Shown piece by piece: positions 2,553 through 55,415 of a stretch of DNA of 64,000 nucleotides. The stretch is from Syntrophaceae bacterium UBA2280 (GTDB lineage Bacteria > Desulfobacterota > Syntrophia > Syntrophales > Smithellaceae), in contig DDWS01000001.1 in assembly GCA_002347685.1 (NCBI GenBank), positions 18,641 to 82,640 on the forward strand, in the 5' to 3' direction. A model generated the notes under the pieces. It was not told the DNA's origin. It searched no databases and saw nothing but the letters and a program-made list of their open reading frames with translations. Each line of letters begins with the position of its first letter. Within the stretch, counting starts at the first letter, position 1. The position numbers and the translations under genes were made by a program.

Positions 2553-2694
2553 AGTTCGCGTATTGAAGACGTTTCACCGCTCAACGGACAGCCAGTGACG
2601 CGGGCAATTACCCGGATGATTTAAAAAAACAGTAAAGCAAATCAACCGGCAAGTCAATATGGATTCATCCTCTACGGGCGGACAAAATTATTTC

Positions 2695-2746: not shown

Positions 2747-2808
2747 CAGAAATCCGACAGGCCCTTTGCGGCATGGACTAAAAAAACGGTCAGTATCGGG
2801 GAGAAACA

Positions 2809-4466: not shown

Positions 4467-4477
4467 CGGAGGTTCCC

Positions 4478-5251
4478 ATGACGGCCGCGCAGCAAGACAT
4501 TCCGCCGCAGGTCCGTGTCCAGAATGTTTCCCTGTTTTTCAAACAGGTGAAAGCGTTGAGCGATGTTTCTTTTGACGTGACCCGCGGCTGTATCTTTGGA
4601 CTGATCGGTTCCGACGGCGCCGGGAAATCCAGCATGCTGCGCCTGATGGCCGGCATGCTTAAGCCGTCGACAGGCGACATCTTCATCGAAGGGCTGCACA
4701 ATGTCCGCCAGCGCAAACAAATCAAACCCCTCATCGGTTATATGCCGCAGCGCTTCGGGCTGTATAGGGATTTGACGGTCGAGGAGAATATCGACTTCTT
4801 CATGGATGTTTTCGGTATTGCCCGCACCGAAAGGAAAAAACGCAAGGAAAAATACCTGGGGTTTTCCAACCTCCTGCCTTTTGTGAACCGTCCCGCGGGG
4901 AACCTCTCCGGCGGCATGAAGCAAAAGCTGGGGCTGGCCTGCGTATTGTCGCATGAGCCGAAGCTGCTGATTCTGGATGAGCCGACCAACGGGGTCGATC
5001 CGGTATCGCGCGGTGAGTTCTGGGAGATTCTGACGCAGATGCGGCAAGAAGGCATGACGCTGATCGTCTCTACCGCTTATCTGGATGAGGGCGAGAAATG
5101 CGACAGGCTGGCATTGATGCATGGGGGCGTCATCCTCCAGACAGCATCACCGGCAGTCATGAAAACGGGCCACGCGACGCTGGAGGCCGCGTTGATCGCG
5201 CGGATTCAAGAGGTGGACAGGGAGCTTGCCGATGACACATTCAGCCTCTGA
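4478..5251 (+). CDS. ABC transporter ATP-binding protein
   Basis: Walker A GSDGAGKS, signature LSGGMKQK, Walker B LLILDEPT. Confidence 0.92.
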   Translation: MTAAQQDIPPQVRVQNVSLFFKQVKALSDVSFDVTRGCIFGLIGSDGAGKSSMLRLMAGMLKPSTGDIFIEGLHNVRQRKQIKPLIGYMPQRFGLYRDLTVEENIDFFMDVFGIARTERKKRKEKYLGFSNLLPFVNRPAGNLSGGMKQKLGLACVLSHEPKLLILDEPTNGVDPVSRGEFWEILTQMRQEGMTLIVSTAYLDEGEKCDRLALMHGGVILQTASPAVMKTGHATLEAALIARIQEVDRELADDTFSL

Positions 5252-5987
5252 CGCCATTTCCGTGCAGGATCTGGAAAAAAAATTCGGCGATTTCGTCGCG
5301 GTCAACAAAATATCCTTCCGCGTTCTCAAGGGCGAAATTTTCGGGTTTCTGGGCGCGAACGGATCCGGAAAATCCACGACCATCCGGATGTTGTGCGGTA
5401 TTTTATCGCCCACCTCCGGAACAGCCAATGTGGCCGGCTATGATATTGTTTCCCGGCCCGAGGAGGTCAAGCACGCCATCGGGTACATGTCGCAGAAGTT
5501 TTCTCTGTATGAAGATTTAACCCCTTATGAAAACATCCGTTTTTACCTGGGTGTGTACAGTGTCCCTAAAAACAAGTGGCCGGACCGCATGGACTGGGTG
5601 TTAAATCTCACGCGGCTTAGCGATGTCAGAAACCGCATCACGGGCGAACTGCCGCCGGGTTGGCGCCAGCGCCTCGCGCTGGGCTGCGCGCTTTTGCATG
5701 AACCGCAGATACTTTTTCTCGACGAACCGACGTCCGGCGTCGATCCCATCACCCGGGGGCATTTTTGGGCATTCATCCGCCGGATCGCCGCCGACGGCAT
5801 CACCGTGTTTGTCACCACACACTACATGGATGAAGCGCGTTTCTGCGAACGCATCGTGATGATTAACGCGGGCAACATCGTCGCGTCCGGGACACCCTTT
5901 GAAATTATCGCCGCCGCCTGCCCCGAAAAACCGGACGCCGACCTCAACGACGCGTTTATCAAACTGATGGCAAGGGGCGCGCCATGA
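5226..5987 (+). CDS. ABC transporter ATP-binding protein (second ATPase)
   Basis: Walker A GANGSGKS, Walker B ILFLDEPTSGVD. Together with the previous gene it corresponds to a split two-domain YbhF-type ATPase. Confidence 0.9.
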   Translation: MPMTHSASDAISVQDLEKKFGDFVAVNKISFRVLKGEIFGFLGANGSGKSTTIRMLCGILSPTSGTANVAGYDIVSRPEEVKHAIGYMSQKFSLYEDLTPYENIRFYLGVYSVPKNKWPDRMDWVLNLTRLSDVRNRITGELPPGWRQRLALGCALLHEPQILFLDEPTSGVDPITRGHFWAFIRRIAADGITVFVTTHYMDEARFCERIVMINAGNIVASGTPFEIIAAACPEKPDADLNDAFIKLMARGAP

Positions 5988-28367: not shown

Positions 28368-28631
28368 GGGACTTTACCACAACGATGTCGTTTGTTGAAG
28401 TAAAGCCGTTCACATGCTACTTTATTTCGATGGACACTTCGAATAGATAGATTTTTTTAGTCGGTTAATTCATCCTCAGCACGGGTCAATAAAGTATCTG
28501 TGTATTTTTTTCCGTTACTGCAACATACATAGACGATTACCTGCCATTTATGTGGCTACAATTAATAACGACCCGTATTGGTACTATGTCAAGACCATAT
28601 AATGGACCATATCATGATCTGTCCCGACTTA

Positions 28632-28691
28632 TATTTAACCTGACAAACATTGTCCATTAATTCTCATCCTTAGCTATCTTCTTTCATCTAC
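28632..28691. repeat. 60-bp direct repeat, copy 1
   Basis: TATTTAACCTGACAAACATTGTCCATTAATTCTCATCCTTAGCTATCTTCTTTCATCTAC differs from 30316-30374 by 3 mismatches and 1 indel. Confidence 0.9.
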
Positions 28692-28739: not shown

Positions 28740-28813
28740 GCGCAACGTGGAGCTCACACTGGTGTCTATGGAGCGCAGTGGAATAGCCATCAAGTGCAGT
28801 GGGTTCGTTGGAC
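28740..28813 (-). other. Candidate attC-like recombination site downstream of the caspase-like gene
   Basis: Minus strand GTCCAAC (a perfect RYYYAAC) lies 11 nt after the stop, and GTTGCGC lies at the far end. The arms between them form an imperfect inverted repeat with bulges. Weaker than the 36-42 kb sites. Confidence 0.4.
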
Positions 28814-28824
28814 GACAGCCTCAC

Positions 28825-29799
28825 CTATATTCGATTCTTCGCTACCAATCTCCGGTAGTGCTCTCCCAGGGCTGTAAGTCTGCAAGACTTGCCCTCCATG
28901 GCAGCGTTCCACATGTGTGTGGCACCAACTGGAACGAGTAGGTTCAGGCGGTTGTAGCGTTGCAACACCCCAAAAATGCGCGTATTTTCAGGGATTGGTA
29001 TCGGCATTCCTGGGTCTCGACCTTTCATCTCAGGCTCATAAGTGGGATCAAGGCTATACTCAAAGCCAGGATCGGGAAAAAACTCGGCTAATCGGCGTAA
29101 ATCAGAAATATCTATCGGAGGGGATGACTTTCGCAACGAAACGAACTGTTTGACGTTAGTCTTAAATACTGGTCGCTGCTCCCATGCACCTAAGGATTGA
29201 TCAATGTGCGCGTATACGCTTCCTGGAGTAATGTCTCCGGTAAGGTTAGCCGCACTTCCACTCAGCGCATCCACAAAGAGAGAGGTAAATACCCCCCGCC
29301 CGTTTTCTTCCGTTGCATATTGATCTTTTGTAGATGCGGTTAGAACAGTGAGGCCCTCTGATAAAGTGGCCAACTGGTCGCTGGTTGATGGCGTACCTGC
29401 GATACCCGAGTGACAGCTGTCTAATACGATGACTTTGTTTTTTGCTGGCGAAGCGTTCGCGCAATTCAGAATCTCAGAAAGAGATACTCCTTCATCACCG
29501 CGTTTCGAGTCTGTCGCAAGTAGATAGCCTCCAGACGCTTCAATATGGCCATGACCTGCGAAGTAAAACAAGGCGATATTTGCGTCGGTTTTGAAAAGCT
29601 CCTCAATTCGATCTTTTAGCTCACTGCGATCTACTCGGTCACTCGGACCAGTGCCGGTGAGTAATCGACAATCGAAGTTTACCGCGCCACCATCGTGCCG
29701 TTCAAGAATTGCCTTAACAGCATGAGCATCATCAACACATCCGAATAGTGGGCTACCGTGTGCGTAATAGTTAATGCCAACAATAAGTGCTATTCGCAT
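28825..29799 (-). CDS. Caspase-like (peptidase C14) protease with an uncharacterised C-terminal domain of about 130 aa
   Basis: Catalytic dyad context FYFAGHGH and [10 protein letters not shown]. 324 aa. 18-nt gap after the TIR-like gene. Confidence 0.85.
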
Positions 29800-29817: not shown

Positions 29818-30189
29818 CTAGAGACTATCAATAAATTTCTCGATTGCGGGCCATGTCCATACAACGGTATTTACACCGGATAGATTTGCTCGGTCATCTG
29901 TGTATGCCCATATGCCGAGAATCTTCTTTTTCTCTTCTCGCGCGCAGGCAATCTCCCATTTCTGACCACTTGAGGTAAAGGAGTTCTTACTTACAAGGGC
30001 GATGACACCATCCGAGCGAAGGATCCGCGTGCGAACTCGATCCTTCCAGTTAGAATCGTATGGCTCCTTCACTGACATATCGACGTACTCAAACGGTGAG
30101 TTCGTGTTTAGAGATTGGCCCTTGAGGAAGTCTCTTTGTCTCTCATCTTCGATAGCGAACGCCACAAAAATCACTTTCTTGTCTGCCAT
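29818..30189 (-). CDS. TIR-like domain protein (DUF1863/ThsB-like)
   Basis: KKVIFVAFAIEDERQRDFL...SDGVIALVSKNSFTSSGQKWEIACA...KILGIW. ATG at 30189 is preceded by GGAGAGG (track start 30210 is a GTG inside that SD). Confidence 0.75.
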   Translation of the reverse strand: MADKKVIFVAFAIEDERQRDFLKGQSLNTNSPFEYVDMSVKEPYDSNWKDRVRTRILRSDGVIALVSKNSFTSSGQKWEIACAREEKKKILGIWAYTDDRANLSGVNTVVWTWPAIEKFIDSL

Positions 30190-30315
30190 TTTCCTCTCCT
30201 TTTTATACACAGTTATTTTTTACAGCACTTCCGAGCAAGTTCGCGCCAATTTCGAGAAGCCGAACACCTTGTCATTCGTGAAGTCGAGTGGTGTCATATC
30301 GGCAATTGCCACTTC

Positions 30316-30374
30316 TATTTAACCTGACAGACATTGTCCATTATTCTCATCCTTAGCTATCTTCTTTCACCTAC
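30316..30374. repeat. 60-bp direct repeat, copy 2
   Basis: See 28632-28691. Lies about 125 nt upstream of the TIR-like gene start. Confidence 0.9.
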
Positions 30375-31662: not shown

Positions 31663-31726
31663 GCCGAACAGTAAAGCTCAACCGGTGCGCGCCACGTGCA
31701 CGCAATCGGCTATAGCGAGGTTAGCA
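31663..31726 (-). other. Candidate attC-like site downstream of the 406-aa gene
   Basis: Plus strand GCCGAAC...GTTAGCA flanks imperfect inverted arms GCTCAACCGGTGCGC / GCACGCAATCGGCTATAGC with bulged bases. 64 bp. Confidence 0.5.
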
Positions 31727-35950: not shown

Positions 35951-36285
35951 GACCGTTTGCTCCCGGTACTTGGCCAGGGCATCCCGGCACGCAAAATACG
36001 CCTCCTGACGGCCCCCTGATGCTCTATTATTTCTTGGTTCAATTTAATTTAATATTTCATTCATCAAAATCCGTTAATGCCGCAATTAAAAGTAAAAAAA
36101 TAATATCTTAAAGATTGATGTTTTTAAGCGCATCTTATTGACGATTCTTCGGTTGATGTTTTGTGAAATAAGGATAGAGGGAAGAGTGGCGAATGTCAAA
36201 ATAACAAGGCGGCTCGTCCGTTTGCATCTACAAGTCAGCACCCATGGTGGATGAAATATTTTACTGATTTGCAATTGTAATAACG

Positions 36286-36446
36286 AGTCTGTAGAATAAC
36301 TCCAAAATAAGATATTCTTGCTATTTTTAGGGGTCTTTTTACCCCTCATCATCGCCAGATCGTCGCTTGTGGAGCATTCTCAGAAATTGATTTTTTAAGC
36401 ATCGTTCCCTGAATGCTGCTTCCTGACTTATTCTACAAGCTCAACG
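36286..36446. mobile_element. 161-bp MITE-like element with 15-bp terminal inverted repeats, copy a
   Basis: Ends are GAGTCTGTAGAATAA ... TTATTCTACAAGCTC, flanked by AACG on both sides. About 10 differences from copies b and c. Confidence 0.8.
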
Positions 36447-36607
36447 AGTCTGTAGAATAACTCCAAAATAAAATATTCTTGCTATTTTTAGGGGTCTTTT
36501 TACCCCTCATCATCGCCAGATCGTCGCTTGTGGGGCATTCTCCGAAGTCGTTTTTTTAAGCATCGTGTCCTGAATACCGCTTCCTGACTTATTCTACAAG
36601 CTCAACG
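36447..36607. mobile_element. 161-bp MITE-like element, copy b (tandem to copy a)
   Basis: By eye identical to copy c at 38685-38845. Directly abuts copy a and shares the AACG junction. Confidence 0.8.
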
Positions 36608-36665
36608 TAAAAATCAGCGGGAGCGTAGCGATCGGCTGGATTGCCTTTGTTATGCATTCATTGTC

Positions 36666-37649
36666 TTACCCGAATTTACCGCCCAAATACGTATAATTGT
36701 CCACATAGTTCTCTATTACTTTATGACCTTTGTCCAACTCGGCCTGAATAAATTCTTTAGACTGCCTCGGATGAAGTACGTTCTCCCTTGTAAGCTGCGG
36801 TGCCCGGAAATTGTCATTGCCGACGACTTGCTCCCGGCGGACTGCGTCAAAAGTATAATCGAGACCAGGCCATTCGAGTTCACTCTTGAAACCCTCTGCA
36901 AGCAGGACAGTAAAACGGTAGATGCCAAAGAGCGACACATAACCTACAAGAAGCCCCCGGTTCCTGTTAAGCGCGACGTGAATTTTATGAATAGGTCGAA
37001 CATGGTCTGTCATGAATCCAGTATGGGCAAAATTGGCACAGGCAAGAGCAGGCTTGTCAGATGCCTTTATGTATTTCCGAACCGCTTCGAACGCCGCTGA
37101 GAATATGACACTCTCAGGAAGTTTTATACACGTAAAGCCATATGCGATTTTTGAGACTGCTCTGCGCAGCAATGCATTGTCTATCATCATTACGCGTTCA
37201 GCTTCGGTCGGACCTTGGTGCACGTCCTGAAAGGTCTTCATGTCGCCTGGTACCTCATAGCGCCTCTGAATAGATGTACATATTTTCTTCAGTTCTTGCT
37301 CGGAGCGAGCTGTGACGTCCGCAAAATCAAGTTTCTTCCCGTCTTTGGAAACCACCTTGACCACTGGGTTCTTTCGCTTCATACTCTTTCCATCAAGGAG
37401 AAGCGTGGTTCCGGATTTCAATTCTTTGACTTCATAGGGCTGCGCCTTACTCCGCTCCCTCTTAATATTAAGCAGCGTACCGATCCACCCAAACTGCTTC
37501 GATATCTCATCGTCTATGCTGTCCCCAAAGGCTTCGTTGCACACCTTGCAGTACAGTTTTGCCTTCAACCTACCCCCAATTGCTTGTGGGATTATGTGTT
37601 CCACCGTCAGCGATCGTGGTTCAGTACAGACAAAGCAGTGAGTTTTCAT
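36666..37649 (-). CDS. HNH endonuclease domain protein (cassette-encoded)
   Basis: CFVCTEPRSLTVEHIIPQAIGGRLKAKLYCKVCNEAFG (CxxC...EH...CxxCN). 327 aa. The stop lies just upstream of the attC. Confidence 0.7.
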   Translation of the reverse strand: MKTHCFVCTEPRSLTVEHIIPQAIGGRLKAKLYCKVCNEAFGDSIDDEISKQFGWIGTLLNIKRERSKAQPYEVKELKSGTTLLLDGKSMKRKNPVVKVVSKDGKKLDFADVTARSEQELKKICTSIQRRYEVPGDMKTFQDVHQGPTEAERVMMIDNALLRRAVSKIAYGFTCIKLPESVIFSAAFEAVRKYIKASDKPALACANFAHTGFMTDHVRPIHKIHVALNRNRGLLVGYVSLFGIYRFTVLLAEGFKSELEWPGLDYTFDAVRREQVVGNDNFRAPQLTRENVLHPRQSKEFIQAELDKGHKVIENYVDNYTYLGGKFG

Positions 37650-37665
37650 TAGTTTGTTGTTCCAT

Positions 37666-37731
37666 GCATAACAACATGCTCACCGGCGTGGCGCGCTGTT
37701 CAGCCACGTCCGGTGCAGCTATTCGTTATGC
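37666..37731 (-). other. attC site
   Basis: GCATAAC...GTTATGC with imperfect inverted arms ACATGCTCACCGGCGTGGC / GCCACGTCCGGTGCAGCTAT. Starts 2 nt after the stop of 37734..38111. Confidence 0.8.
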
Positions 37732-37733
37732 AG

Positions 37734-38111
37734 CTACGTTTTGACCCTGGTGTTGTATTTACATTTCGGGCATTCATGAGTCGCGTTCATTATCTCTACA
37801 AAATCAGTCGGCACAGGTCTCATATAGAATGGTCTACCAACTGTCGAACAGTTGGGGCAGGTTGGGACTCCAGAGGGTCCGGTCGCTGTTGCCGAAAGCT
37901 CCTGAATCCGGTGCTCCAGGCTCCTAATCTTGTCTTTTAGCTCCTGTCGCTCCTCCCGTAGTGCTATGTTTGCTTCATGCAGTGCGGCCTGCTCCGACTG
38001 AAGTGTTAAGGCAAGATTTTGAACTTCACGAAGTTCGGCGGCAACTTTCCTATCAGCGATGCTTGTTGATAATTGCGTCACAAGGTCAACCAAATCTTTG
38101 ATGGTCCCCAC
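37734..38111 (-). CDS. Coiled-coil protein with a C-terminal zinc ribbon (second gene of a two-gene cassette)
   Basis: Heptad-rich N-terminus, then CPNC...CPKC. Starts 15 nt after the upstream gene. Confidence 0.6.
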   Translation of the reverse strand: MGTIKDLVDLVTQLSTSIADRKVAAELREVQNLALTLQSEQAALHEANIALREERQELKDKIRSLEHRIQELSATATGPSGVPTCPNCSTVGRPFYMRPVPTDFVEIMNATHECPKCKYNTRVKT

Positions 38112-38126
38112 CTACGGCCTCCTTTC

Positions 38127-38663
38127 TCATCCCTCAAGTTCATGCCTAAAGTCTGTCTTGATTCTGTCAAGCAATTCGTTGCGCGTATTCGTGTTACCCT
38201 TGAGCTCAGCAACGTAGCGATGCAAAGCGTCGTTAACCTCATCTGCCAAATACTTTGGGTTGATAGAAAGGCATCTTGAAACAATGACAACCGTCTCGGG
38301 CTGATCAAGTGCGAATTGTCCTCCATTTTTGATACGGCCTTCGTGAACCAAGCCATTTCTGAATTCATCATAGAACCGGTGAGCAATGTCGTTGCTGGCA
38401 AAGCTTTGCAGTTGGGCCTTTACCCATGAACGGAATCGGTCGCCCACGCCAGTAGACAGGTGCAACCGTGCAAGGGCATCGATGCAACTCACTAACAGAA
38501 GTCCGCAGGCGAAGGCATGGCCGTTTCTTATCATTGCAGCGGCGGGCTCCAAGTAGAAGCCTTTCATTCGTTTCTCAAACTGCTCTGGCAGTATCTGGCC
38601 GGAAAGGTCCAGCTCTGCGAACTTGATACCCGGAGCAAAATAGAGGATGTCAGCAATTCTCAT
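38127..38663 (-). CDS. Hypothetical protein with an Rx4H (HEPN-like) motif
   Basis: FRNGLVHEG (R-N-x3-H). ATG at 38663 is preceded by GGAAGGA (track GTG start 38675 lies inside the attC core). Confidence 0.55.
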   Translation of the reverse strand: MRIADILYFAPGIKFAELDLSGQILPEQFEKRMKGFYLEPAAAMIRNGHAFACGLLLVSCIDALARLHLSTGVGDRFRSWVKAQLQSFASNDIAHRFYDEFRNGLVHEGRIKNGGQFALDQPETVVIVSRCLSINPKYLADEVNDALHRYVAELKGNTNTRNELLDRIKTDFRHELEG

Positions 38664-38676
38664 TTTTCCTTCCACT

Positions 38677-38901
38677 GCATAACGAGTCTGTAGAATAACT
38701 CCAAAATAAAATATTCTTGCTATTTTTAGGGGTCTTTTTACCCCTCATCATCGCCAGATCGTCGCTTGTGGGGCATTCTCCGAAGTCGTTTTTTTAAGCA
38801 TCGTGTCCTGAATACCGCTTCCTGACTTATTCTACAAGCTCAACGTAAAAATCAGCGGGAGCCTGATTTTTAGGCGATCCGCTGGATTGATTTTGTTATG
38901 C
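38677..38901 (-). other. attC site of the 389-aa cassette, interrupted by one 161-bp element
   Basis: GCATAACG | insert | TAAAAATCAGCGGGAGCCTGATTTTTAGGCGATCCGCTGGATTGATTTTGTTATGC. The stop codon of 38896..40065 lies inside the distal core. Confidence 0.75.
38685..38845. mobile_element. 161-bp MITE-like element, copy c
   Basis: Same ends, same orientation and same insertion point (after ATAACG) as at 36286. Confidence 0.8.
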
Positions 38902-40065
38902 GTGTTCTAATATTTTTTCAATTTCTTCCTTTAATGATCCAATAACATCTGAATGGCTTTCCATATGAAAACCGATAATGCAGACGGCGTCGTGTTTGGT
39001 GTGTTCGCGACTGTCTGGCAACCTCAAAATGTCGTAACCCATAATGTGGCCGTTCAAGTTATTACAATAATTAACAGCCCTAATGGTTGCCAACTCCTCT
39101 TTAGTTGGAGCAAACATTCTTGACGGAGGCGTAAAGATGGCTTCAAAACAAGGAGCGACCACTTCCCTGATAAAATTATCGACATCCTTGAGATTAATAT
39201 TGTTCTTTGGCTTATAAAAAACACTCAAGATAATTGGACCATAAAGAGCGCTAAATAATGGATATTGCTTTTTAAAAGCAGATAGTTTCTTTGTAATTAC
39301 TTCTTTCTGGGAAACGATTTCCTCTGTGTTTCTTGGAATGGTTACGCTTACGCGAATAGGATATTTCAAAACAGTCATCAGAATGTCTACGAACGAAGTG
39401 CCTCTACGTTTGTATTTGTTGTGATTATAAAGCAAGTCCAAGTAAAAAGGTTGCACTTCATTGATTCTTAGAATGTCTTGTTGTCTTTGATACATTTCAA
39501 TCTTATACCCAAGTGAGTTAACGGGATAGTTAATCGGTTCAGTGAGGTCAACGTCTCTTTCCCGCTCTCGGCCGGCAACACGGTTTTCGTCTTTAAGTCT
39601 TTTAAAAATGTTAGCGTATTCAAGAACTGCGTTAAAACTCTCTATAAGAATATGCGCACCAGCGGACTGCATTTCTATGTTTTGACGAACGGAGAGAAAG
39701 GATACCTGCGAGTCATCATAGTATGGCAGGCGTGATCTTATCGCCCCGTCATTTTCTCGTGGGTCTTGTTGATTGCGGTTTACATGCATTAAATCCAACA
39801 TATTTTTAGACGCATTGACAACTGTCGGAGGACTGTTGTCGTTGTAGCAGTAGAGAATTCGCAGATAAACGTTACTTGTAAATGCTTTTCTTCCTAAATT
39901 TATAAAGCGTTGGTTGAGATCTCTCTTAACAATATTTCTCTTTTTTTGGCTCATACCTTGCTTCGACTTCACTTTGCCATCAATAGAGAAAAGAATTTGT
40001 CTTCTCTGCAACTGGCGGAATTTATGTTTTAAGAAATCCAAGGATTCAAGGTAGTCATTAAACAT
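38896..40065 (-). CDS. Hypothetical protein (389 aa), cassette-encoded, no family recognised
   Basis: AT-rich ORF that fills the space between two attC sites. Confidence 0.6.
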   Translation of the reverse strand: MFNDYLESLDFLKHKFRQLQRRQILFSIDGKVKSKQGMSQKKRNIVKRDLNQRFINLGRKAFTSNVYLRILYCYNDNSPPTVVNASKNMLDLMHVNRNQQDPRENDGAIRSRLPYYDDSQVSFLSVRQNIEMQSAGAHILIESFNAVLEYANIFKRLKDENRVAGRERERDVDLTEPINYPVNSLGYKIEMYQRQQDILRINEVQPFYLDLLYNHNKYKRRGTSFVDILMTVLKYPIRVSVTIPRNTEEIVSQKEVITKKLSAFKKQYPLFSALYGPIILSVFYKPKNNINLKDVDNFIREVVAPCFEAIFTPPSRMFAPTKEELATIRAVNYCNNLNGHIMGYDILRLPDSREHTKHDAVCIIGFHMESHSDVIGSLKEEIEKILEHA

Positions 40066-40084
40066 ATGTCATTAATCTCAATGT

Positions 40085-40141
40085 GTATAACGACGAAATC
40101 AGCGGGGAGCGTAGCGAGTCCGCTGTATTGCCTGGTTATGC
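40085..40141 (-). other. attC site
   Basis: GTATAACGACGAAATCAGCGGGGAGCGTAGCGAGTCCGCTGTATTGCCTGGTTATGC. ATAAC/GTTAT cores, CAGCGG/CCGCTG inner stem, unpaired spacer bases. Confidence 0.85.
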
Positions 40142-40145
40142 ATTT

Positions 40146-40739
40146 TCACGTGTCCCTGTTTAAACGATACCACATAATATCATCATATTGCGTTGGAATA
40201 ATATCATTATTGAATTCATTATTTATTTCCGTCTTAATTAAACATTGTAGCTTGTCGTACAATTTTTGGTCGATTTGTTCGACACTCTTTGCTTGAATAA
40301 TCTCATCGGGGAATTTAATTTTAAGGTGATTCAATATCGGATTGTCGATTGCTGTGTTCATGAATGGTAAAATAACTACTGCCGTTTCACTGTCCGGTAG
40401 ACTTGAATAGTAGACGTAAACTTTCAATACGACATCAAGTAATTTGGCTGCGTGTCCATAAAGCGCATATCCGGATTCTTTAATTATTCTATTATCTCTT
40501 TCCTTCTGTGCTGTTTTAATATTCTTTGTGAACCATATGCAAAAATTGCCATGCAACCTTTTGAATTCTTCTTCAGTTCTTATCTCTTTGAGTTTCTGAA
40601 ATTCTTCATATAGTTTCTTTCCGATTATCGGTTTTGTACCTTTTTCAAAGAGTCGGATCATGGCTGTAAATGTCAAACCCATGTCTATAACACTCTTCTG
40701 TTTTATTTCGGAGGCGATCACTATATTCGCTGACTTCAT
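40146..40739 (-). CDS. Hypothetical protein (197 aa), cassette-encoded
   Basis: AT-rich ORF bounded by attC sites on both sides. Confidence 0.6.
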   Translation of the reverse strand: MKSANIVIASEIKQKSVIDMGLTFTAMIRLFEKGTKPIIGKKLYEEFQKLKEIRTEEEFKRLHGNFCIWFTKNIKTAQKERDNRIIKESGYALYGHAAKLLDVVLKVYVYYSSLPDSETAVVILPFMNTAIDNPILNHLKIKFPDEIIQAKSVEQIDQKLYDKLQCLIKTEINNEFNNDIIPTQYDDIMWYRLNRDT

Positions 40740-40753
40740 ATTATTTCATTCCT

Positions 40754-40809
40754 GCATAACGGCGAAATCACCCGGAACGTAGCGATCGGGTGTATTGCTT
40801 TTGTTAGGC
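40754..40809 (-). other. attC site
   Basis: GCATAACGGCGAAATCACCCGGAACGTAGCGATCGGGTGTATTGCTTTTGTTAGGC. The stop codon of 40804..41586 lies inside the distal core. Confidence 0.85.
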
Positions 40810-41586
40810 TTTTTCATGCCAATGACTGAGAAATAAGTGGCCAAATTCCGATACGGCCATTCCATCGGTCAATAACTGAGGATGGAGGATCAAAGGTCTC
40901 GGTGGTGAATCTTCTTTAAAAGCGTGCAAAAAGGTGAAATTCGGACTGCCAAGCGCATCTTGCTCGGTCCACACCTGCTCCAAACGTTCCCAGTTACTGT
41001 TTTTTATGCATTCGGTCTTCTCCGCCTCTAGTTCATTGAAGCGTCGTCCTTCTTCCGGCACAAATTCTGCTGGAGGTATATACGGCGGAATCCGATGCGC
41101 AAGTGCATCTCTATAGGACTTTGCGTAGGACTTGTGCCACTCAGTTGTCAGTGGTGAAGTCAAATAGTTACGCAGCTGTTCTGGCAAGTGGTCGCGGGTT
41201 GCATCGATGAAGAGCCCAACCCGACGGCGATCTCCTATTATCGATTCCAGATTGTGGCGGAGCACATACGCCCAAGCCCAGTTATCGTATAGTCCATAAA
41301 GGTTTATTAAGAAAGCGTGCAAGTTGATTTGTACGTCAGTTAAAGTGTTCCTGTCAAGTGGACGTGTTGTGCTTGGGGGAAACAGAGTGAACACGTTCTC
41401 AATACTGCGCCGAATGACTCCAACGCGCCGGCCTGCCCCATGCAGCAAGTGCTCACGCGCGCGCGATGCAGGATCGAGTAGTTGCCCTTCGAGAACGATC
41501 TTTAATTGCAAGTCGTTCAACATGGCGAGTACTTCAACGCATTGCGATTCTAGTGTCTCAAGTGCTTCAGCGTAAAAGAACATCAT
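40804..41586 (-). CDS. Hypothetical protein (260 aa) with an Rx4H (HEPN-like) motif, cassette-encoded
   Basis: YRDALAHRIP (R-x4-H). Higher GC than neighbouring cassettes. Confidence 0.55.
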   Translation of the reverse strand: MMFFYAEALETLESQCVEVLAMLNDLQLKIVLEGQLLDPASRAREHLLHGAGRRVGVIRRSIENVFTLFPPSTTRPLDRNTLTDVQINLHAFLINLYGLYDNWAWAYVLRHNLESIIGDRRRVGLFIDATRDHLPEQLRNYLTSPLTTEWHKSYAKSYRDALAHRIPPYIPPAEFVPEEGRRFNELEAEKTECIKNSNWERLEQVWTEQDALGSPNFTFLHAFKEDSPPRPLILHPQLLTDGMAVSEFGHLFLSHWHEKA

Positions 41587-41603
41587 GCCTCGATGCCGTC
41601 ATG

Positions 41604-41659
41604 GCCTAACGACGAAATCACCCGGAGCGTAGCGATCGGGTGGATTGATTTTGTTATGT
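41604..41659 (-). other. attC site
   Basis: GCCTAACGACGAAATCACCCGGAGCGTAGCGATCGGGTGGATTGATTTTGTTATGT, near-identical to 40754-40809. Confidence 0.85.
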
Positions 41660-41667
41660 TAATATAA

Positions 41668-42294
41668 TTATTTCATTATTTCAAAGACCGCTTTCCAGAA
41701 TTGAATCACTTCAGGAAAATATTCATTTAACGTTAATTGGCAATAATATGATCCTCTTGCTAAAGCTTGGTCTCTATTTTGGATATCAAGGTATGGTATT
41801 AACTCGACTTCATCTTTAGTAATTGGTAACTCAAATCTGGCAACAATTTTATTAGTGACAAGTAGGAATTCTATGTTTGATATTTTATTTTTAAGCTCAT
41901 TTCTAAATTTCCTTATATGAAAGATATATGTAATGTTTATCTTCAAGAAGATTAGAATTGGCAAATTATATTTATCATAATGGCCCTTCATTAATGCTTT
42001 GGCGAATGGTAGAAAACTTTTATTTGTATTATTCTTGGTCGCTTTGTTTATATAGAAGAGTAGAGAATCTAAAAGCTCTCTGCTGTTAAACAATAATTCC
42101 CTGAAACAGGAAATTAACTCTTTGTCATTTCCATGCCCCTTTATGAACAGCGTTGTATATTTGTCCACTTTATCTTTTACTTCGCTGTTTTTGGCTAGTG
42201 CTATTTTTGTAAAACGTCCATTGGCATATCCAAGCTGTTCAAAGCGCAATATGTGATCATCCTTGAATAATTCTGGCATGCCAAATTGGACCAT
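41668..42294 (-). CDS. Hypothetical protein (208 aa), first cassette of the array
   Basis: Very AT-rich ORF. On the minus strand it is preceded by GTTATGT (42319-42313) and followed by an attC. Confidence 0.6.
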   Translation of the reverse strand: MVQFGMPELFKDDHILRFEQLGYANGRFTKIALAKNSEVKDKVDKYTTLFIKGHGNDKELISCFRELLFNSRELLDSLLFYINKATKNNTNKSFLPFAKALMKGHYDKYNLPILIFLKINITYIFHIRKFRNELKNKISNIEFLLVTNKIVARFELPITKDEVELIPYLDIQNRDQALARGSYYCQLTLNEYFPEVIQFWKAVFEIMK

Positions 42295-42312
42295 CTTATT
42301 TTCTCTCTATCC

Positions 42313-42319
42313 ACATAAC
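42313..42319 (-). other. Orphan GTTATGT core at the head of the cassette array (attI-like junction or truncated attC)
   Basis: Minus strand GTTATGT lies 18 nt upstream of the ATG of the first cassette. I found no partner ATAAC core within 150 nt upstream. Confidence 0.35.
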
Positions 42320-42431: not shown

Positions 42432-42504
42432 TTTGGCATTTCACGATAATAAGGACCAAAAGCCAAATTGGGTATTTTATGGGAAAAGTGTCCAACCTGT
42501 AGAA
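42432..42504. repeat. About 73-bp repeat A, containing inverted motif TTTGGC-N15-GGACCAAA
   Basis: The 29-bp core TTTGGCATTTCACGATAATAAGGACCAAA matches 49772-49800 at 25 of 29 positions. A second block, GGAAAAGTGTCCAA, matches GGAAAATTTGTCCA. Confidence 0.7.
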
Positions 42505-50147: not shown

Positions 50148-50594
50148 CTAATTCGAATCAAGCTTTTTGCGCAAAATGGTCTGCCCGCGGTTAACATCAG
50201 GTAGAGGCTGACTCAGTAATTCGTAGTCGAAGCCATGAGCAGACGCATTGAAAGCCCATATGGTGAATTGTTCTAATAGGCGTTGATTTTCCGACTCTAA
50301 TCGTCTGTTTTCCGCCTCGAACCGTTCGATACGCTGTCGCGCGATCTGTACCTCTGGTGACGAGGTAGGTCCGATCTGGCCGCCATCCCTCAATAGATTT
50401 TTCTTTGTAAGGAAATACGCATTGCGGATTCTTTCGTGCTTGAAGAGTGCTTGCCGTGTATAGCGGCCATAAATGCGAACCGCAATCTCATCAATCAGCA
50501 GATTCCACGTAAGCTTGGTAGACCAACCATCGAGGATTTCAACTATCCGCTTGATATCAACGTCTGATAAATTTTTAGCTCGCCTGTGCATCAT
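50148..50594 (-). CDS. Small helical protein, fourth gene of the recombinase operon (GinD/TnpC-like by position)
   Basis: Coiled-coil RQRIERFEAENRRLESENQRLLEQ. The ATG at 50594 overlaps the end of the upstream recombinase gene. Confidence 0.6.
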   Translation of the reverse strand: MMHRRAKNLSDVDIKRIVEILDGWSTKLTWNLLIDEIAVRIYGRYTRQALFKHERIRNAYFLTKKNLLRDGGQIGPTSSPEVQIARQRIERFEAENRRLESENQRLLEQFTIWAFNASAHGFDYELLSQPLPDVNRGQTILRKKLDSN

Positions 50595-52608
50595 CAGCCT
50601 CCATTGTTTCAATAGCATCTTGAGTTTTATATAATTTTAATGACTCGTTCAAAAGCTTTGCACTCTTTGGTGGAGTCAATTGTATGACAGAACCAACAGG
50701 GACTTTAGGATCATCCATAATCGAGACCACTTGCTGCAACCGCTCCAATGTTGAGCGGTGATGCTCAAACCATCTGTCGCTACCGGCATATCCTTCGCCT
50801 ACTTTTTTTTCGGCACGTTCCGTAAGCTCTCTGGCTTCTGCTAGCCCTTTTCTCAATCGTTCAGCTTTCTCTTCGTCACCCTTTAAAAATACCAACTCGC
50901 CGCAATGTATGCAATCCCTGAAAATCTGGCAAGGTGACATTGTGTAATCATGCAGACAATAGCCAAGGTCTGTCGTATGCGCTGTAGGCGCTACAAGACG
51001 AGAGAATTCATCACGCGGGATTAAAATTCCTTTCGAAATTTCTGCCAGAGAGCCGAGAGGGCCGAAAAACTGGCTGTCGTCTCCTATGGCATCCCGTATT
51101 TTCATGAGCATCTGTTCAGCAGTTTCATGATCATAAGCTGCATTCTGGCGAACGTCCTGGCGGCCCGACCACTTTGCGATGTCAAGCTGACTCAAACCAC
51201 CCATTTGCGCCAGAGTATTGAGATAGTGCCGAAACTGATGTGTGGTAATTCTTATAGGAGTACCATCCGGTTCACAAAAACCTGCGCGCGAATAAATTGA
51301 TGATTTTCCTTGGGCAGATTGGCTACCGAGACCATTATTAATTTGATTGATGCTTATTGGTTCAATCATACAATTGTATGTCGCTTTGCTTTCGTCAATT
51401 TCATTTTTTCGGCAAATAAGCAAAGCCTCGCTATATTTGAGTCCCGTTTCAGCCTCCAAGATAGGAAACCTCCTTGGTAGCATGCTAAGTACGGCATTTT
51501 GGACATCTGCGAATTTCACCTGTTTTGATATATTCCTTTTGATTTTATGATCTGAACACCAATGGCTAGCGGAACTAATCCTTTTCATACCAATTACAGC
51601 TGCAACTTCAGTCAGGGATAGCCATTCCTGACCACGAAGATATTCCCTATCCTCTGAGAGATATATGCGTCCCGGATTAATCTCATACCAAATGGCTATA
51701 CGCCGGGCCTCTGCTGTTATTTTTTTTATCCTGCTAATCGCTTCCTTTACGACGCTGGCCCAGGAAGGCAGGATCCATTTGACCGTGGGATTTGCAGCCT
51801 TTGCTGGCCACCACCGGAGGCCATAAGCATCAGCTTCGCCGTTTTCCCGTTTCAAGTCGACCTCACAATTCTCCGGCAACGTGAGGACTTCGCTTATACG
51901 GTCGGGGCATGAGATTAGAATTACCGCCACAGACGCGACTATCACATCCACTGGCTCCACAGCCAAAAGAAAAACCTTGGGCAGCGATTCCAGCGCGGCC
52001 TCTGACGGCAACTTAGATTGCCTTCGCTTGTCAAATTCTTTGCCAACCCGATCAGTGTCACAAGGCCGTTTCAAAAAATTTCGCCACGGAAAAGGCCGGA
52101 TAGTAAGCCTGTTCGCGATTAGGAATTGGGAAAGAAATTGAAGATGACCGCCAACACGATATGCAACGACACCACTATATTTTTCGCGGACCATTTGTGA
52201 AGCCTTGTTTAGCACAAAGGAATCAATTTCGACAGGATCGGGAAAAACCGAATTTGAAGATAGCGCGTCACATACCGCTCTAAGGGCGACTAAACGTTTC
52301 TTGTAGTCGACAATTGGGTGAATTCCGTGCAGGTATCGCATATAAGACTTTGCAAAAATCAAGAACTTTTCAGGCATTGCTGTAGGGAATCTGTCGTTTA
52401 CAGTTTTTAACGTGCTGAATACTATCCCATGCCGGACGTTTCCATGTCCTTTTATACCGATATAATCGGTTATATCCCAAGTGTTGGAATCAAATGGGAG
52501 GTCGGATCCAAAGACGGTCAATTCGTTCCGACATAGGGCAATAAACCCTTGCATATTGCACTCGGCATCAAGCTCAGCACGTGGCTTAAAATAAATAATG
52601 TCAGCCAT
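50575..52608 (-). CDS. Tyrosine recombinase, large (677 aa; GinC/TnpB-like position)
   Basis: C-terminal catalytic region HQFRHYLNT...RQDVRQNAAYDH. Overlaps both neighbouring genes. Confidence 0.8.
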   Translation of the reverse strand: MADIIYFKPRAELDAECNMQGFIALCRNELTVFGSDLPFDSNTWDITDYIGIKGHGNVRHGIVFSTLKTVNDRFPTAMPEKFLIFAKSYMRYLHGIHPIVDYKKRLVALRAVCDALSSNSVFPDPVEIDSFVLNKASQMVREKYSGVVAYRVGGHLQFLSQFLIANRLTIRPFPWRNFLKRPCDTDRVGKEFDKRRQSKLPSEAALESLPKVFLLAVEPVDVIVASVAVILISCPDRISEVLTLPENCEVDLKRENGEADAYGLRWWPAKAANPTVKWILPSWASVVKEAISRIKKITAEARRIAIWYEINPGRIYLSEDREYLRGQEWLSLTEVAAVIGMKRISSASHWCSDHKIKRNISKQVKFADVQNAVLSMLPRRFPILEAETGLKYSEALLICRKNEIDESKATYNCMIEPISINQINNGLGSQSAQGKSSIYSRAGFCEPDGTPIRITTHQFRHYLNTLAQMGGLSQLDIAKWSGRQDVRQNAAYDHETAEQMLMKIRDAIGDDSQFFGPLGSLAEISKGILIPRDEFSRLVAPTAHTTDLGYCLHDYTMSPCQIFRDCIHCGELVFLKGDEEKAERLRKGLAEARELTERAEKKVGEGYAGSDRWFEHHRSTLERLQQVVSIMDDPKVPVGSVIQLTPPKSAKLLNESLKLYKTQDAIETMEADDAQAS

Positions 52609-54154
52609 TAAAACCCCTGATATCGCGAATGAGTTGGCACTGTCTTACAACCTCCGCAACTGCCAAAATCGTTCGGTCGCAAATCGAAGCAACGCGCAAG
52701 TCAGAGGACACCAGCAGCCGTTCGCGTTCGTTAATCAGATAATCCAACACCGCGCCGTGAGGACCGTCAAGCCATGGCCGAAAACCTCTGCACTGGTAGC
52801 AGGCAATAGGTGCCGACAAACCGCAGAAACCATTATTATCACAATTGCCCATCGGCTTCATCAAAGGGTCAAAGCGCGGATCACACACTCTACAAGCGGG
52901 ATCTCCTGCATAAGCGGCTTCGGTTTCATCTTTAATAATGACACCGGCAAATGCTGCTGCAAGTGGCGCCAACTGAAGTGCCACAGCGCGATCGATTCTC
53001 TCTATAATCTCCGGCATGGCTTGAACATAGACGCTGACATTTTGAGTATCTGTGTGATCCAAAAGTTCGGCAATTATTAACTCACCGTGGCCTTCAACAG
53101 CGGCCCTGGTGCCAACGCTTCGTCGAAAGCGATACGCGTTCACATTAAGAGGCTTTCCGGTGCGCTCCGACCTTACTTCCAGTCTTCCCACAATTTCTGA
53201 TAAAGCACGTGAAAGAGATCGACTTGTTTGATGATACTCAAAACCATTAGGCACTTTTTCGCGTATTCCTTTTGTTGGGAACAAGGGAGCTTGGCCTGGA
53301 TCTTCCAGTCTCAGCATAAAGCTCTCTTGCACTTCCGATGCATGCCGCAGGAGATTTTCACCGAGCTTCGCAATCAAAAGACGATTTTTAAACTCTGACC
53401 TTGGAAGACTGTGCCGCAGCTTGGCACGGGGAACACGAATTGAATAGACCGTCATCCCGTTCTTTGTTTCTCCCGACTTCACGTCGCAAACTTTGAGAAG
53501 AGCATACTGTACCGGACGCAGTCCTAGTGCGAGAAAAAGCGAAACCAAAACATATTCGCCAAGATTAATGACCTCGTCCTTGAAAGCTGTTTCCAATGAA
53601 AATAGAATCGCCTGATTCTCAAGATCAGTGTAGGGACCATTCACCGGATCCATTGTCAAAACCGCCTCGCCCTTTTTATTACCTGTAAGTCGGAGTTGCT
53701 TGAGAATGGCTATTGCACCGTCTTCTATTCCCAAATACCTCATTTCATGCCATTTTTTCATTAAACCAGATATACTGCCTAGATAGTAATGATCCCTTTT
53801 TTTTAATGTTGCATAGTAATTAATTATTTGATGCGGAGAAATCGATGAAACAATCATTCCTGATTCTGAGACGGTGAAGCTTAAAAATTTTTTTAAATAA
53901 AAATACAGATTATCCAAGTAACCCAACGATTTATTCTGCGCGTACCAAACGAAAACTTTCTTGGCTGCCAATTTCATTTCCGGAGTTATTGGCAATTTTC
54001 CGAAATCAAGCTTTACAGTATTCGAACTTTCATGACAATTCCAGATATCCAATCTCGGATCAAATTCCGCGCCACCTCGGGTACTGACTATTGACGGCAA
54101 GGTTAAATCACAGATTTTTGATGATTCGCGGCGCAAAGCCAAACTATTTATCAT
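52601..54154 (-). CDS. Tyrosine recombinase (517 aa; second of the trio)
   Basis: GLRPVQYALLKVCDV, AYRFRRSVGTRAA and LLDHTDTQNVSVYVQ. Confidence 0.75.
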   Translation of the reverse strand: MINSLALRRESSKICDLTLPSIVSTRGGAEFDPRLDIWNCHESSNTVKLDFGKLPITPEMKLAAKKVFVWYAQNKSLGYLDNLYFYLKKFLSFTVSESGMIVSSISPHQIINYYATLKKRDHYYLGSISGLMKKWHEMRYLGIEDGAIAILKQLRLTGNKKGEAVLTMDPVNGPYTDLENQAILFSLETAFKDEVINLGEYVLVSLFLALGLRPVQYALLKVCDVKSGETKNGMTVYSIRVPRAKLRHSLPRSEFKNRLLIAKLGENLLRHASEVQESFMLRLEDPGQAPLFPTKGIREKVPNGFEYHQTSRSLSRALSEIVGRLEVRSERTGKPLNVNAYRFRRSVGTRAAVEGHGELIIAELLDHTDTQNVSVYVQAMPEIIERIDRAVALQLAPLAAAFAGVIIKDETEAAYAGDPACRVCDPRFDPLMKPMGNCDNNGFCGLSAPIACYQCRGFRPWLDGPHGAVLDYLINERERLLVSSDLRVASICDRTILAVAEVVRQCQLIRDIRGFNG

Positions 54155-55415
54155 GTTCCACTCCCATCATCTTTGTCTGCATTTCGAGGGACACGGCGTT
54201 TGCTTTTTCACGGATGTGGCGCTTAGTGTACGTAGCTGCTGTCTGCGATGTCGAACACCAGCCCATGATATATGCACGAGTCTTCTTTTCCGTCTCTTCC
54301 GATTCCTTATGTTTGTCCATTTCTTCCGAAAATCGATCATTCCATGTGTGCCGAAGGATGTGGGGGTATACCTTAGGTAATTCCGGACATTTCATGCTGA
54401 GAATTCTAAAAATCTTGTTCAATGATGAAATAGACAGAGGAGCACCAGAATCTGTGGAAACAAAAAGGAAATCATGCTTTTTTGCGCCGAGAAATGCTGC
54501 CCGATGACGCAGGATGTAAGTTTCAATCATATCCCTCAACCCAGAGGAAAACGAGATTTTACGTGCTTTGGTTTTGGTATTCGGTTGATTATGGCGTGGA
54601 TCCTTGGGATCATCGGCACGCCTTACGATAATAACTGTATTTCCCCGAAAGTCGATATTAGGAATCCTGATACCCAGCAATTCCCCCCTGCGCAAACCAA
54701 GGTAATATAGCATATTTACGATCAGAACGTTTCGATGCTTCGAATGTTCCTCCTTCCACGGATTATTCTTCGAACTCGAATCAACTACCTGTAGTAATAT
54801 TCCCCGGCTTTCCGAATCCAACCCTTCTCGATCGCCAAGGGATCCCCGAGAGCATTCAGGGATTCTAACGTTAATAGCCTCTATCATCATCTGGCGCGCC
54901 GCATAGAGAGAATCGTAATGGCTGCTTTGTTTATTTTGTCGCGATAATTGCACCAGTGAAAACCAGGAAAGAAAGTCGCGGATAGCACGAAGTCGGTTAG
55001 CCGCCGTCGCCGGCAAAACATCCTGCATCCTCTTTGGACGCGGTCTCGCTCTATACTTCTCACAAGCCATAACTTTCAACGGCAACACCTTGGCACCATT
55101 AACGTGCCGACATGGCATCTCAGCCATTGGCAGTCGGCAAAAACATATCAATGACTCTATCTCAACCAACGTCAGCAGCTCTCCATGTCGCCCTCTTTCG
55201 CGAATATTTATGTCACGCAAGTCAAGCCACAGGTAAAGAATCATTATACCCCGCAAAGAACTTTCAATCGTGTTCGTTGCAAGATTGCTCATTCGTAATT
55301 GTGTGAGGGAATAGACAGTAGGTTCAAATAATGGTATCCTCTTTGAATCCAAAAGCATCGGCAGGCGCTCCCCTGACCGCAACACAACCATTTTGATACG
55401 ATATTGATGTTCCAT
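54144..55415 (-). CDS. Tyrosine recombinase (423 aa; first of the trio)
   Basis: GLRRGELLGIRIPNIDF (Arg), HILRHTW (H-x-x-R), AATYTKRH (Tyr). Confidence 0.85.
   Translation of the reverse strand: MEHQYRIKMVVLRSGERLPMLLDSKRIPLFEPTVYSLTQLRMSNLATNTIESSLRGIMILYLWLDLRDINIRERGRHGELLTLVEIESLICFCRLPMAEMPCRHVNGAKVLPLKVMACEKYRARPRPKRMQDVLPATAANRLRAIRDFLSWFSLVQLSRQNKQSSHYDSLYAARQMMIEAINVRIPECSRGSLGDREGLDSESRGILLQVVDSSSKNNPWKEEHSKHRNVLIVNMLYYLGLRRGELLGIRIPNIDFRGNTVIIVRRADDPKDPRHNQPNTKTKARKISFSSGLRDMIETYILRHRAAFLGAKKHDFLFVSTDSGAPLSISSLNKIFRILSMKCPELPKVYPHILRHTWNDRFSEEMDKHKESEETEKKTRAYIMGWCSTSQTAATYTKRHIREKANAVSLEMQTKMMGVEHDK

Follow-up and report, generated by a model that had tools for sequence, protein, structure and literature searches.

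The cassette array and its attC sites

We analysed a 64,000-nucleotide stretch of contig DDWS01000001.1 from Syntrophaceae bacterium UBA2280 (the window, numbered from its first letter), and we describe here an array of integron-type gene cassettes at 36278-42319 together with a 161-nt element that occurs three times within it. From the sequence and the open reading frame (ORF) calls, the array comprises six cassettes with seven ORFs, all on the minus strand. Each cassette is followed by one attC-type site, all in one orientation, and along the array these sites are F (41604), E (40754), D (40085), C (38677), B (37666) and A (36278). At all six the stop codon either lies 2-10 nt from the site or overlaps it, as an earlier note on this stretch had described. 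We consider it highly probable that the locus is a cluster of attC sites lacking an integron integrase (CALIN), made up of six attC cassettes, and that two of its sites have been invaded by miniature transposable elements with inverted repeats (MITEs) of the lineage of the insertion sequence (IS) family IS1182.

The upstream boundary of cassette 1 is a lone R'-type core at 42313-42319 on the minus strand, which reads ACATAAC on the plus strand and G|TTATGT on the cassette strand. The covariance model described below finds no site at 42313-42319, and no attC body lies beside this core; no attI was recognised beside this upstream end of the array either, attI sites being a class without a general model. 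Cassettes 1 (ORF 41668-42294, 208 aa, guanine-plus-cytosine (GC) content 0.316) and 2 (40804-41586, 260 aa, 0.489) encode proteins with no family match. They are followed by cassettes 3 (40146-40739, 197 aa, 0.345) and 4 (38896-40065, 389 aa, 0.383). Cassette 5 (37734-38675, 0.49) holds two ORFs, one of 182 aa (38127-38675) and one encoding a coiled-coil-like protein of 125 aa (37734-38111), and cassette 6 (36666-37649, 327 aa, 0.475) encodes a protein with an HNH_5 domain (PF14279, 6.2e-13). This HNH endonuclease is the sole cassette protein, one of seven, with a significant family match in the Pfam and PADLOC searches, and PADLOC matched no known defence family among the cassette proteins. 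The ORF GC contents of 0.316-0.49 bear out the sharp differences between cassettes that had been noted earlier. A scan for consensus promoters gave matches no commoner than in shuffled sequence.

Read on its bottom strand, a published attC site consists of an R' box (RYYYAAC), an unpaired spacer of 5-6 nt, an L box and, at the far end, an R'' box (GTTRRRY), with an extrahelical base at position 16 opposite the AAC arm, a 6-bp stem, a T at position 23/24 and then a variable terminal structure (VTS); of the two strands, the bottom one is reported to form the more stable fold (PMC5027507). All six sites fit this layout when the plus strand of the window is read as the recombining bottom strand, and this assignment agrees with gene orientation, the sites lying 3' of the ORFs. 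In site F (41604-41659), for example, the order is GCCTAAC-GACGA-AAT-CACCCG-[VTS]-T-CGGGTG-G-ATT-GATTTT-GTTATGT. AAC and GTT are present in every site, and 5-7 of the 7 R-box positions pair when G-T wobble is counted, with YRY (CAT) rather than YYY at the middle positions in most sites. The form GCATAAC...GTTATGC that had been proposed for the whole array is matched exactly at site B only (one match, with 0.00 expected in shuffles), and the other sites carry one- or two-base variants of it (GCCTAAC, GTATAAC, TAATAAC / GTTAGGC, GTTATGT). A TAA stop codon falls inside the R'' box at sites E and C, in the former case that of cassette 2.

The inner anatomy is equally regular. In every site the unpaired spacer of the 5' arm is 5 nt long and that of the 3' arm 5-6 nt, and the 3-bp L box is AAT/ATT, or GCT/AGC in site B. 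The first extrahelical base stands at 16 or 17 throughout (G, T or C, and G in only three of the six), the unpaired T at 23/24 is always present, and the 6-bp stem is perfect except for one mismatch in the terminal site A, whose main body lies at 36607-36655. Stems differ between sites in a compensatory manner (CAGCGG/CCGCTG, CACCCG/CGGGTG, CACCGG/CCGGTG). Site D (40085-40141) has its first extrahelical base at 16 and its T at 23, and site B (37666-37731) combines the stem CACCGG/CCGGTG with an extrahelical C at 16, a T at 23, an extended stem and a 10-nt loop. With DNA folding parameters the plus (bottom) strand is the more stable in five of the six sites (for site E, 40754-40809, -9.3 against -6.4 kcal/mol for the top strand), the two strands being about equal in site B (-20.4 vs -20.7). 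The inner sequence that the earlier note had seen in four sites is indeed common, and to five of them (A, C, D, E and F). A repeat finder puts the copies at 36600, 40754 and 41604 into one group and the 3' halves of four sites into another.

We built a covariance model from these five similar sites and ran it unfiltered over the 64 kb; site B was left out and used as an independent test, because MAFFT misaligned it against the other five. The training sites are recovered at 62-80 bits (F at 79.9, E at 79.7, D at 68.5, A at 71.3 for 36600-36655 and C at 62.6 for 38838-38901, the last two hits including the element end GCTCAAC discussed below). Site B, although unrelated in sequence, is recovered at 26.8 bits (E = 1e-3), and nothing further in the 64 kb is significant. 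Two weaker candidates, from which it had been suggested that the array once reached the TIR-caspase and nuclease genes, both fail this model and leave that extension unsupported: 28740-28813 scores 12.6 bits (E = 2.5) and on inspection by hand lacks the canonical L box and extrahelical layout, and 31663-31726 is not reported at E <= 10. A generic scan that combined AAC...GTT with hairpin energy returned 74 candidates in which the real sites, except B, were not top-ranked, and the covariance model was preferred.

Among 33 other loci that had been fetched for other reasons, 17 contain sites of the same attC type, 45 matches in all (44 distinct). They form single-strand arrays with cassette-like spacing and up to 10 sites (on the 12-kb contig L049). 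In the 44 distinct sites, 90% of pair cells hold standard pairs vs 82% in shuffles, both members have changed in 10 of the 16 pairs, pairing in the L-box/stem helix reaches 99%, and the three AAC/GTT pairs are kept in 42-44 of the 44 rows. One site related to C (31.8 bits, 78% identity) follows an lnu(F)/linG resistance cassette on plasmid pHRM2a of Desulforapulum autotrophicum. In clinical class 1 integrons, lnu(F)/linG is likewise found as a cassette. The pHRM2a gene is 99% identical to the reference lnu(F), and the plasmid (L030 / L152, 56.6-68.7 kb and 1-9 kb) carries a one-strand array with a TIR-domain gene and at least one attC of the window type; no integrase is annotated beside this array, which looks like another integrase-less array, on a mobilizable plasmid.

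Geometry, covariance model and the compensatory changes in the 44 related sites thus uphold the array of six attC-type sites after minus-strand genes that the earlier note had proposed, and its suggested checks of bottom-strand folding and extrahelical bases come out in its favour. To judge from this anatomy, the six sites are real integron attC sites, at which IntI would be expected to recombine.

The 161-nt element and its relatives

The R' boxes of sites A and C are split from the bodies of these sites by 322 bp and 161 bp of inserted repeat, and the site length of 56-66 bp that had been given applies to the uninterrupted sites only. The inserted unit is 161 nt long (GAGTCTGTAGAATAAC...CTTATTCTACAAGCTCAAC), with two tandem copies at site A and one at site C, and when the units are removed in silico both sites regain the length and layout of the uninterrupted ones. 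At site C, the main body (unpaired central spacer, L box, stem, VTS and R'' box, identified from sequence and geometry) lies at 38845-38901 and is followed by MITE copy 3 (38684-38844) and then by the displaced original R' box (GCATAAC, 38677-38683), directly upstream of cassette 5. At site A, copy 2 (36446-36606, from the repeat finder and dissection of the sequence) and copy 1 (36285-36445) stand head to tail with one AAC in common, and the array ends with the degenerate original R' box of the terminal attC (TAATAAC, 36278-36284; 5 of 7 R-box positions pair). All of these features lie on the minus strand. The repeat finder reports the three copies as a 182-nt family at 36282, 36443 and 38681: the unit made of copy 2 plus ~18 nt of adjoining attC is 100% identical to that spanning copy 3, and the unit spanning copy 1 (36282-36463) is 86% identical to that spanning copy 2.

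The element is non-coding, its ends are 16-nt terminal inverted repeats (GAGTCTGTAGAATAAC / CTTATTCTACAAGCTC in copy 3), and it is inserted just after the RYYYAAC box of attC. The junction is ambiguous by 3 nt, with AAC(GTT) on both sides, and one of its possible positions coincides with the integron crossover. The left end of the element reads, on the cassette strand, GTTGAGC, a valid GTTRRRY (GCTCAAC at 36600-36606 and 38838-38844 on the other strand). Because this end mimics GTTRRRY, the upstream attC stays structurally complete; in the hits of the model to A and C, it is the element end GCTCAAC that serves as R' box. By repeat search and blastn, the three copies in the window are found only in attC sites, and the window contains no transposase and no further copy. 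A protein identical to the 389-aa product of cassette 4 occurs on three other, independent assemblies, all of which stop inside the following MITE, a sign that the insert is a multi-copy repeat. No empty allele of sites A and C of the window was found.

Several other identities for the insert were considered, and so were signals within it. Its fold z-scores (-3.3 and -2.1) come mostly from the stem formed by the terminal repeats, and with no Rfam family matched a structured RNA gene is unsupported. A scan for outward promoters or terminators on the cassette strand of the MITE gave nothing above shuffle level, and a weak terminator-like hairpin lies on the opposite strand. The 7-nt/3-nt extension rule of IS1111-attC elements could be fitted to the MITE ends, end geometry alone being ambiguous, but a derivative of such an element with its seekRNA was rejected on account of the full-length partners, whose transposase is a DDE enzyme of the IS1182 family. 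An IS200/IS605-type element or a group II intron was rejected as well: subterminal hairpins like those of such elements are missing, and Rfam gave no match to an intron or a ribozyme. Two short look-alikes were seen outside the array. The right terminus of the MITE recurs identically at 31672-31682 (AAGCTCAAC), within the weak candidate 31663-31726, and at 42489-42503, ~170 nt upstream of the first cassette, GTCCAAC|CTGTAGAAT combines a perfect RYYYAAC box with 9 nt of the MITE repeat core. The latter may be a decayed insertion or a chance match; neither look-alike came up in a blastn comparison with all elements, and both are possibly due to chance.

Relatives of the element are widespread, with more than 100 in public genomes and metagenomes, and nearly all of those examined share the attC position, the orientation and the GTT flanks. 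A scan of GTDB genomes with the two repeat cores only, leaving the flanks unconstrained, gave 25 stretches with 31 copies, almost all from Colwellia. Each copy lies between an attC body and the next cassette, GTTGAGG precedes 29 of the 31, and 28 are flanked by GTT at either end. When metagenomes were scanned with the right end of the element, at least 120 stretches came up. Among the matches listed, the elements fall into length classes of 148-151 nt, 160-161 nt and 1838-1868 bp, and the long ones encode a protein of 508-512 aa. Also among the matches listed, the 160-161-nt class includes 13 metagenome copies that share 77-84% identity with the window copies over their full length, and all 13 occupy the same position in an attC of the window type. 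The ends are conserved and the interiors unrelated across lineages, which is the pattern of MITEs. Three filled/empty junction pairs among the relatives differ by exactly the element plus GTT (empty GGC-GTT-ATGT, filled GGC-GTT-[element]-GTT-ATGT). A member of the family is also found in an attC of a complete integron, L133, which has a divergent intI.

The long elements occupy the same position in attC (...GGGC GTT|GAGGTTGTAGAAT...ATTCTACAGGCTC|GTTAGTT). The transposase of one of them, in L051, contains DDE_Tnp_1_6 (PF13751, 7.7e-28) and DUF772 domains and matches the NCBIfam model NF033551 at 266 bits, the cut-off being 270; because this match is under the cut-off, the assignment to IS1182 draws on it together with the Pfam domains and tblastn matches to elements annotated ISSau3/IS1182, which cover 96% of the protein at ~25% identity. 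Close homologues are found by tblastn in Pseudoalteromonas replicons, and the next matches among those listed are at 60% (Catenovulum) and then <=29%. L129 holds a full-length IS of 1838 bp whose transposase shares 43% identity with the others. This IS occupies an attC of the window type, and its terminal 15-18 nt are those of the 161-nt class; among the matches listed it would be the best candidate for the autonomous partner. Judged by these comparisons, the 161-nt insert is a MITE of an attC-targeting lineage of the IS1182 family, probably mobilised in trans. A full-text literature search for IS1182 in connection with attC or attC targeting, in which ISfinder entries were outside the comparison, found no such lineage described, and we put the chances that the lineage is undescribed at roughly even.

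Some individual relatives deserve mention. In L051, two identical full-length IS copies in direct orientation (1476-3333 and 4057-5914) bracket a two-gene unit (99 and 90 aa), so that a possible single cassette is enclosed in the manner of a composite transposon; by eye, the bracketed genes resemble a Phd/YefM-YoeB antitoxin-toxin pair. The draft genome of Colwellia marinimaniae MTCD1 contributes 11 stretches with 13 MITE copies (L005, L007-L009, L011, L012, L016, L018, L021, L024 and L026), some on contigs of only 1.4-7 kb (L007, L011, L016, L018 and L026), which would fit fragmentation of the arrays by the element during assembly. Plasmid pMEGA of Pseudoalteromonas translucida TAC125 has a copy in an attC-like site (L031 6001-6160). 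The tyrosine recombinase near this copy was rejected as an IntI, having scored 69 bits vs a cut-off of 265 on the integron-integrase model; its best scores are with the XerC and XerD models, at 142 and 137 bits, below their cut-offs.

Absence of an integrase, island context and rival explanations

No recombinase of the window matches the integron-integrase model TIGR02249, and a motif scan for integron integrases in all six reading frames of the window found none. The same scan did find the IntI genes of L013 and L133, which TIGR02249 confirmed at 457 and 436 bits, respectively. The window corresponds to positions 26605-90604 of a 122,655-bp Joint Genome Institute metagenome contig, from which the right flank was read; the left flank (~10 kb) was read from a related assembly of another sample. 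In the ~10 kb beyond each end of the window, the Pfam annotations of the called genes include no integrase; the right flank has lipid A genes, and the left flank has ATP-binding cassette (ABC) transporter and BcrAD/HGD-D genes. Inside the window, the span free of intI extends ~36 kb on the low-coordinate side of the array and 21 kb on the high-coordinate side, and the recombinase gene nearest to the array lies over 8 kb off and is not an intI. With six attC sites and no integrase nearby, the array is a CALIN; the adjacent intI of a complete integron is lacking, as the earlier note had concluded for the 64 kb.

The surroundings also agree with that note, which had placed a CALIN-type array as cargo in an island beside a different recombinase set, and CALIN as island cargo is a fair description. 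The island is ~29 kb long and low in GC, from about 26.4 to 55.8 kb, with a RodZ-like gene on one side and ssb on the other. Besides the array it holds RES-Xre, a TIR-caspase pair, DUF4238, MazF and Fic, a DNA methylase with a ResIII helicase and a recombinase-like trio; toxin-antitoxin modules are among its genes, and the methylase/helicase pair may be a restriction-modification module. The trio consists of three overlapping recombinase-like genes (423, 517 and 677 aa; 50575-55415, minus strand) at the right edge of the island by ssb. In an island of the GInt type, three neighbouring tyrosine recombinase genes that overlap would stand at one end. Here two of the three match tyrosine-recombinase or integrase models (PF00589 at 2e-15; NF041502 at 534.9 bits) and the third has a 14.8-bit match only; no tRNA is present in the island region. 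To the left of ~26.4 kb lie ilvD, ilvC, an acetolactate synthase-like thiamine pyrophosphate enzyme, a class A penicillin-binding protein, tatC and the RodZ-like gene, and to the right of 55.8 kb lie ssb, lysS, lolCE-like genes and bamA. Within the island, a ~65-nt direct repeat (94-97% identical copies at 28627-28691 and 30311-30374) brackets the TIR gene (29818-30210) and the caspase gene (28825-29799) as if they were a discrete module.

The history that we propose has two stages. IntI, either in an ancestor or in trans, would have built the array by recombining folded bottom strands at AA|C; with no local integrase the array would now be static unless an IntI elsewhere acts in trans. Later, three MITE copies would have invaded the fourth and the terminal attC, with the transposase supplied in trans by a full-length partner. 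Their target would be the GTT of the R' core, that is, the cassette boundary, entered in a fixed orientation and with GTT left on both sides, and such flanks would fit a 3-bp target duplication. The MITE and the displaced TTATGC would thereby become the 5' leader of the next cassette. Identical MITEs followed by the same downstream cassette but preceded by different upstream cassettes (in two metagenome contigs, L137 3561-3720 and L093 899-1058, both in minus orientation) are suggestive of such co-movement of the MITE with its downstream cassette.

The same L137/L093 pair is what cassette shuffling would give, and it bears on a different explanation, in which the 161-nt elements are not transposons but ORF-less integron cassettes moved by IntI. 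The 3-nt ambiguity does let the boundaries fall at the G|TT crossover, and the tandem pair at site A is as in cassette arrays, but the element lacks its own attC: inspection by eye shows no RYYYAAC partner, and the model places no site inside it. Its ends pair with each other as terminal inverted repeats of 16 nt, the full-length elements that share these ends carry a DDE transposase gene, the ends are conserved around unrelated interiors across lineages, and a MITE riding as the leader of the downstream cassette explains the L137/L093 pair equally well. We regard the ORF-less cassette as very improbable. Still less probable, to the point that we give it hardly any weight, is that the repeats are terminator-like or repetitive extragenic palindromic (REP) sequences and the cassettes ordinary island genes. 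That five sites are near-identical, that sites stand directly after stop codons, that no integrase was found and that a consensus scan finds terminator-like plus-strand stems in sites A and C (36628-36644 and 38875-38889) is all compatible with such palindromes. The stems are followed by no T-run on the coding strand, however, and the sites have the exact attC layout with its extrahelical positions and invariant AAC/GTT, a geometry that site B shares in unrelated sequence. The rest of the 64 kb has no copies, related sites stand in dense arrays on a single strand, a related site follows lnu(F), a known integron cassette, and the IS lineage that hits these sites is also found in an attC of a complete integron. 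A repeat occurring genome-wide, which the earlier note had named as the observation that would speak for a REP-like element, was not seen; the repeat is not of that kind, because the attC type recurs only in cassette-like arrays in the other contigs searched.

A closer call is whether the array that we read as a CALIN with MITEs is a dead relic on which no IntI acts, with the MITEs and the degenerate terminal R' box as signs of decay. The lack of intI in the window and in ~10 kb beyond each end fits this, as does the terminal site with its mismatched stem and TAATAAC box, and the upstream end shows no more than the lone core (42313-42319), beside which no attI was recognised. Against this, the structure of five of the six sites is perfect, and the invaded sites, in which the MITE end rebuilds a GTTRRRY core, still score 62-71 bits; an IntI elsewhere in the genome is possible, the search having covered the window and its ~10-kb flanks. 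We put the relic at somewhat under an even chance.

Several considerations weigh against our own interpretation of a CALIN invaded by IS1182-lineage MITEs. With no integrase found, the recombination competence of the six sites is predicted from their anatomy. The covariance model is lineage-specific, and for the five sites on which it was trained it is circular; the alignment of related sites in which covariation was assessed had been fitted to that model. The 3-bp duplication is indistinguishable from a 161-nt insert that brings its own GTT, and the interpretation asks a strict orientation and a choice of R' over R'' of a DDE transposase. The NCBIfam match to the IS1182 family falls 4 bits below the curated cut-off, and the MITE shares only ~20-nt ends with any full-length IS found, which makes L129 a putative partner.

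As a CALIN, the array adds one more ordinary case to an arrangement that is already known and fairly common; a cassette cluster in an island with toxin-antitoxin, TIR-caspase and possible restriction-modification genes has catalogue value and is unsurprising. The embedded MITEs are the part that merits specialist attention, as they point to a DDE lineage that has specialised on the attC cassette boundary and spread densely through arrays, breaking three assemblies of this locus and probably many contigs of C. marinimaniae, and they offer a natural case for studying how a DDE transposase reads a structured, sequence-variable target. They also matter for annotation, since such insertions split attC and will lead finders of attC to overlook sites or put them in the wrong place, as in the earlier note. 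An element end that rebuilds the core could allow co-mobilisation by IntI together with cassettes, and could alter the expression of the cassette downstream.

Comparison with known systems

Cury et al. are said to have defined the CALIN in 2016, for IntegronFinder, as an attC cluster lacking the integron integrase. The array resembles this class in that its attC sites number at least two and share one orientation, that each of them stands behind a promoterless ORF, that no intI is close by and that most cassette proteins have no known family. It differs in nothing essential: here it lies in an island with a recombinase-like trio, and two of its sites contain MITEs. The homogeneity of the attC sites had been taken as typical of sedentary chromosomal integrons, of which the Vibrio superintegron with its VCR repeats is an example. 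That comparison is plausible, with no integrase here to which it could be tied: five of the six sites are homogeneous and their type recurs in many related contigs. The differences from sedentary integrons are that the array has six cassettes, that its sites are short (56-66 nt) as in mobile integrons, and that no platform (intI, attI and the cassette promoter Pc) was identified here.

Mobile elements that specialise on attC have been described before. The IS1111-attC group (ISKpn4, ISPst6, ISPa21/25) has a DEDD transposase and is guided by a seekRNA (PMC11187229). Our elements resemble this group in their orientation-specific insertion at one end of attC and their spread through cassette arrays, but their partner encodes a DDE transposase of the IS1182 family rather than a DEDD enzyme, they have true terminal inverted repeats and GTT flanks where the IS1111-attC group has subterminal repeats without duplication, no seekRNA-like region was recognised in them, and MITE derivatives are abundant. 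Degenerate IS1111-attC copies have reportedly been seen at array termini (Tetu and Holmes, 2008). Group IIC-attC introns are a second attC-specialised mobile lineage, retroelements of ~2 kb with a ribozyme fold (PMC3001079), whereas our elements have no Rfam match. Beside these two, the 161-nt elements may represent a third, independently evolved class of attC-specific mobile elements, consisting of an IS1182 clade and its MITEs. Their GTTGAGS end, as a mimic of GTTRRRY, would keep an invaded attC open to IntI, and the element, riding as leader of the cassette behind it, would piggyback on integron recombination. Its transposases would range down to 43% identity and its hosts would include Colwellia, Pseudoalteromonas and the host of the window. 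We propose this tentatively, thinking it slightly more apt to be wrong than right.

The targeting itself has a parallel within the transposase family. IS1272, a member of the IS1182 family, is reported to target stem-loops (PMC5678879). The likeness lies in the shared family and in the preference for hairpin-forming targets. IS1272 reportedly replaces its target hairpin and leaves no duplication, whereas here the hairpin is kept and insertion occurs at its foot, at the GTT of the R' box, with GTT at both ends and in a fixed orientation. The stem-loop targeting of IS1272 is the only precedent that we found.

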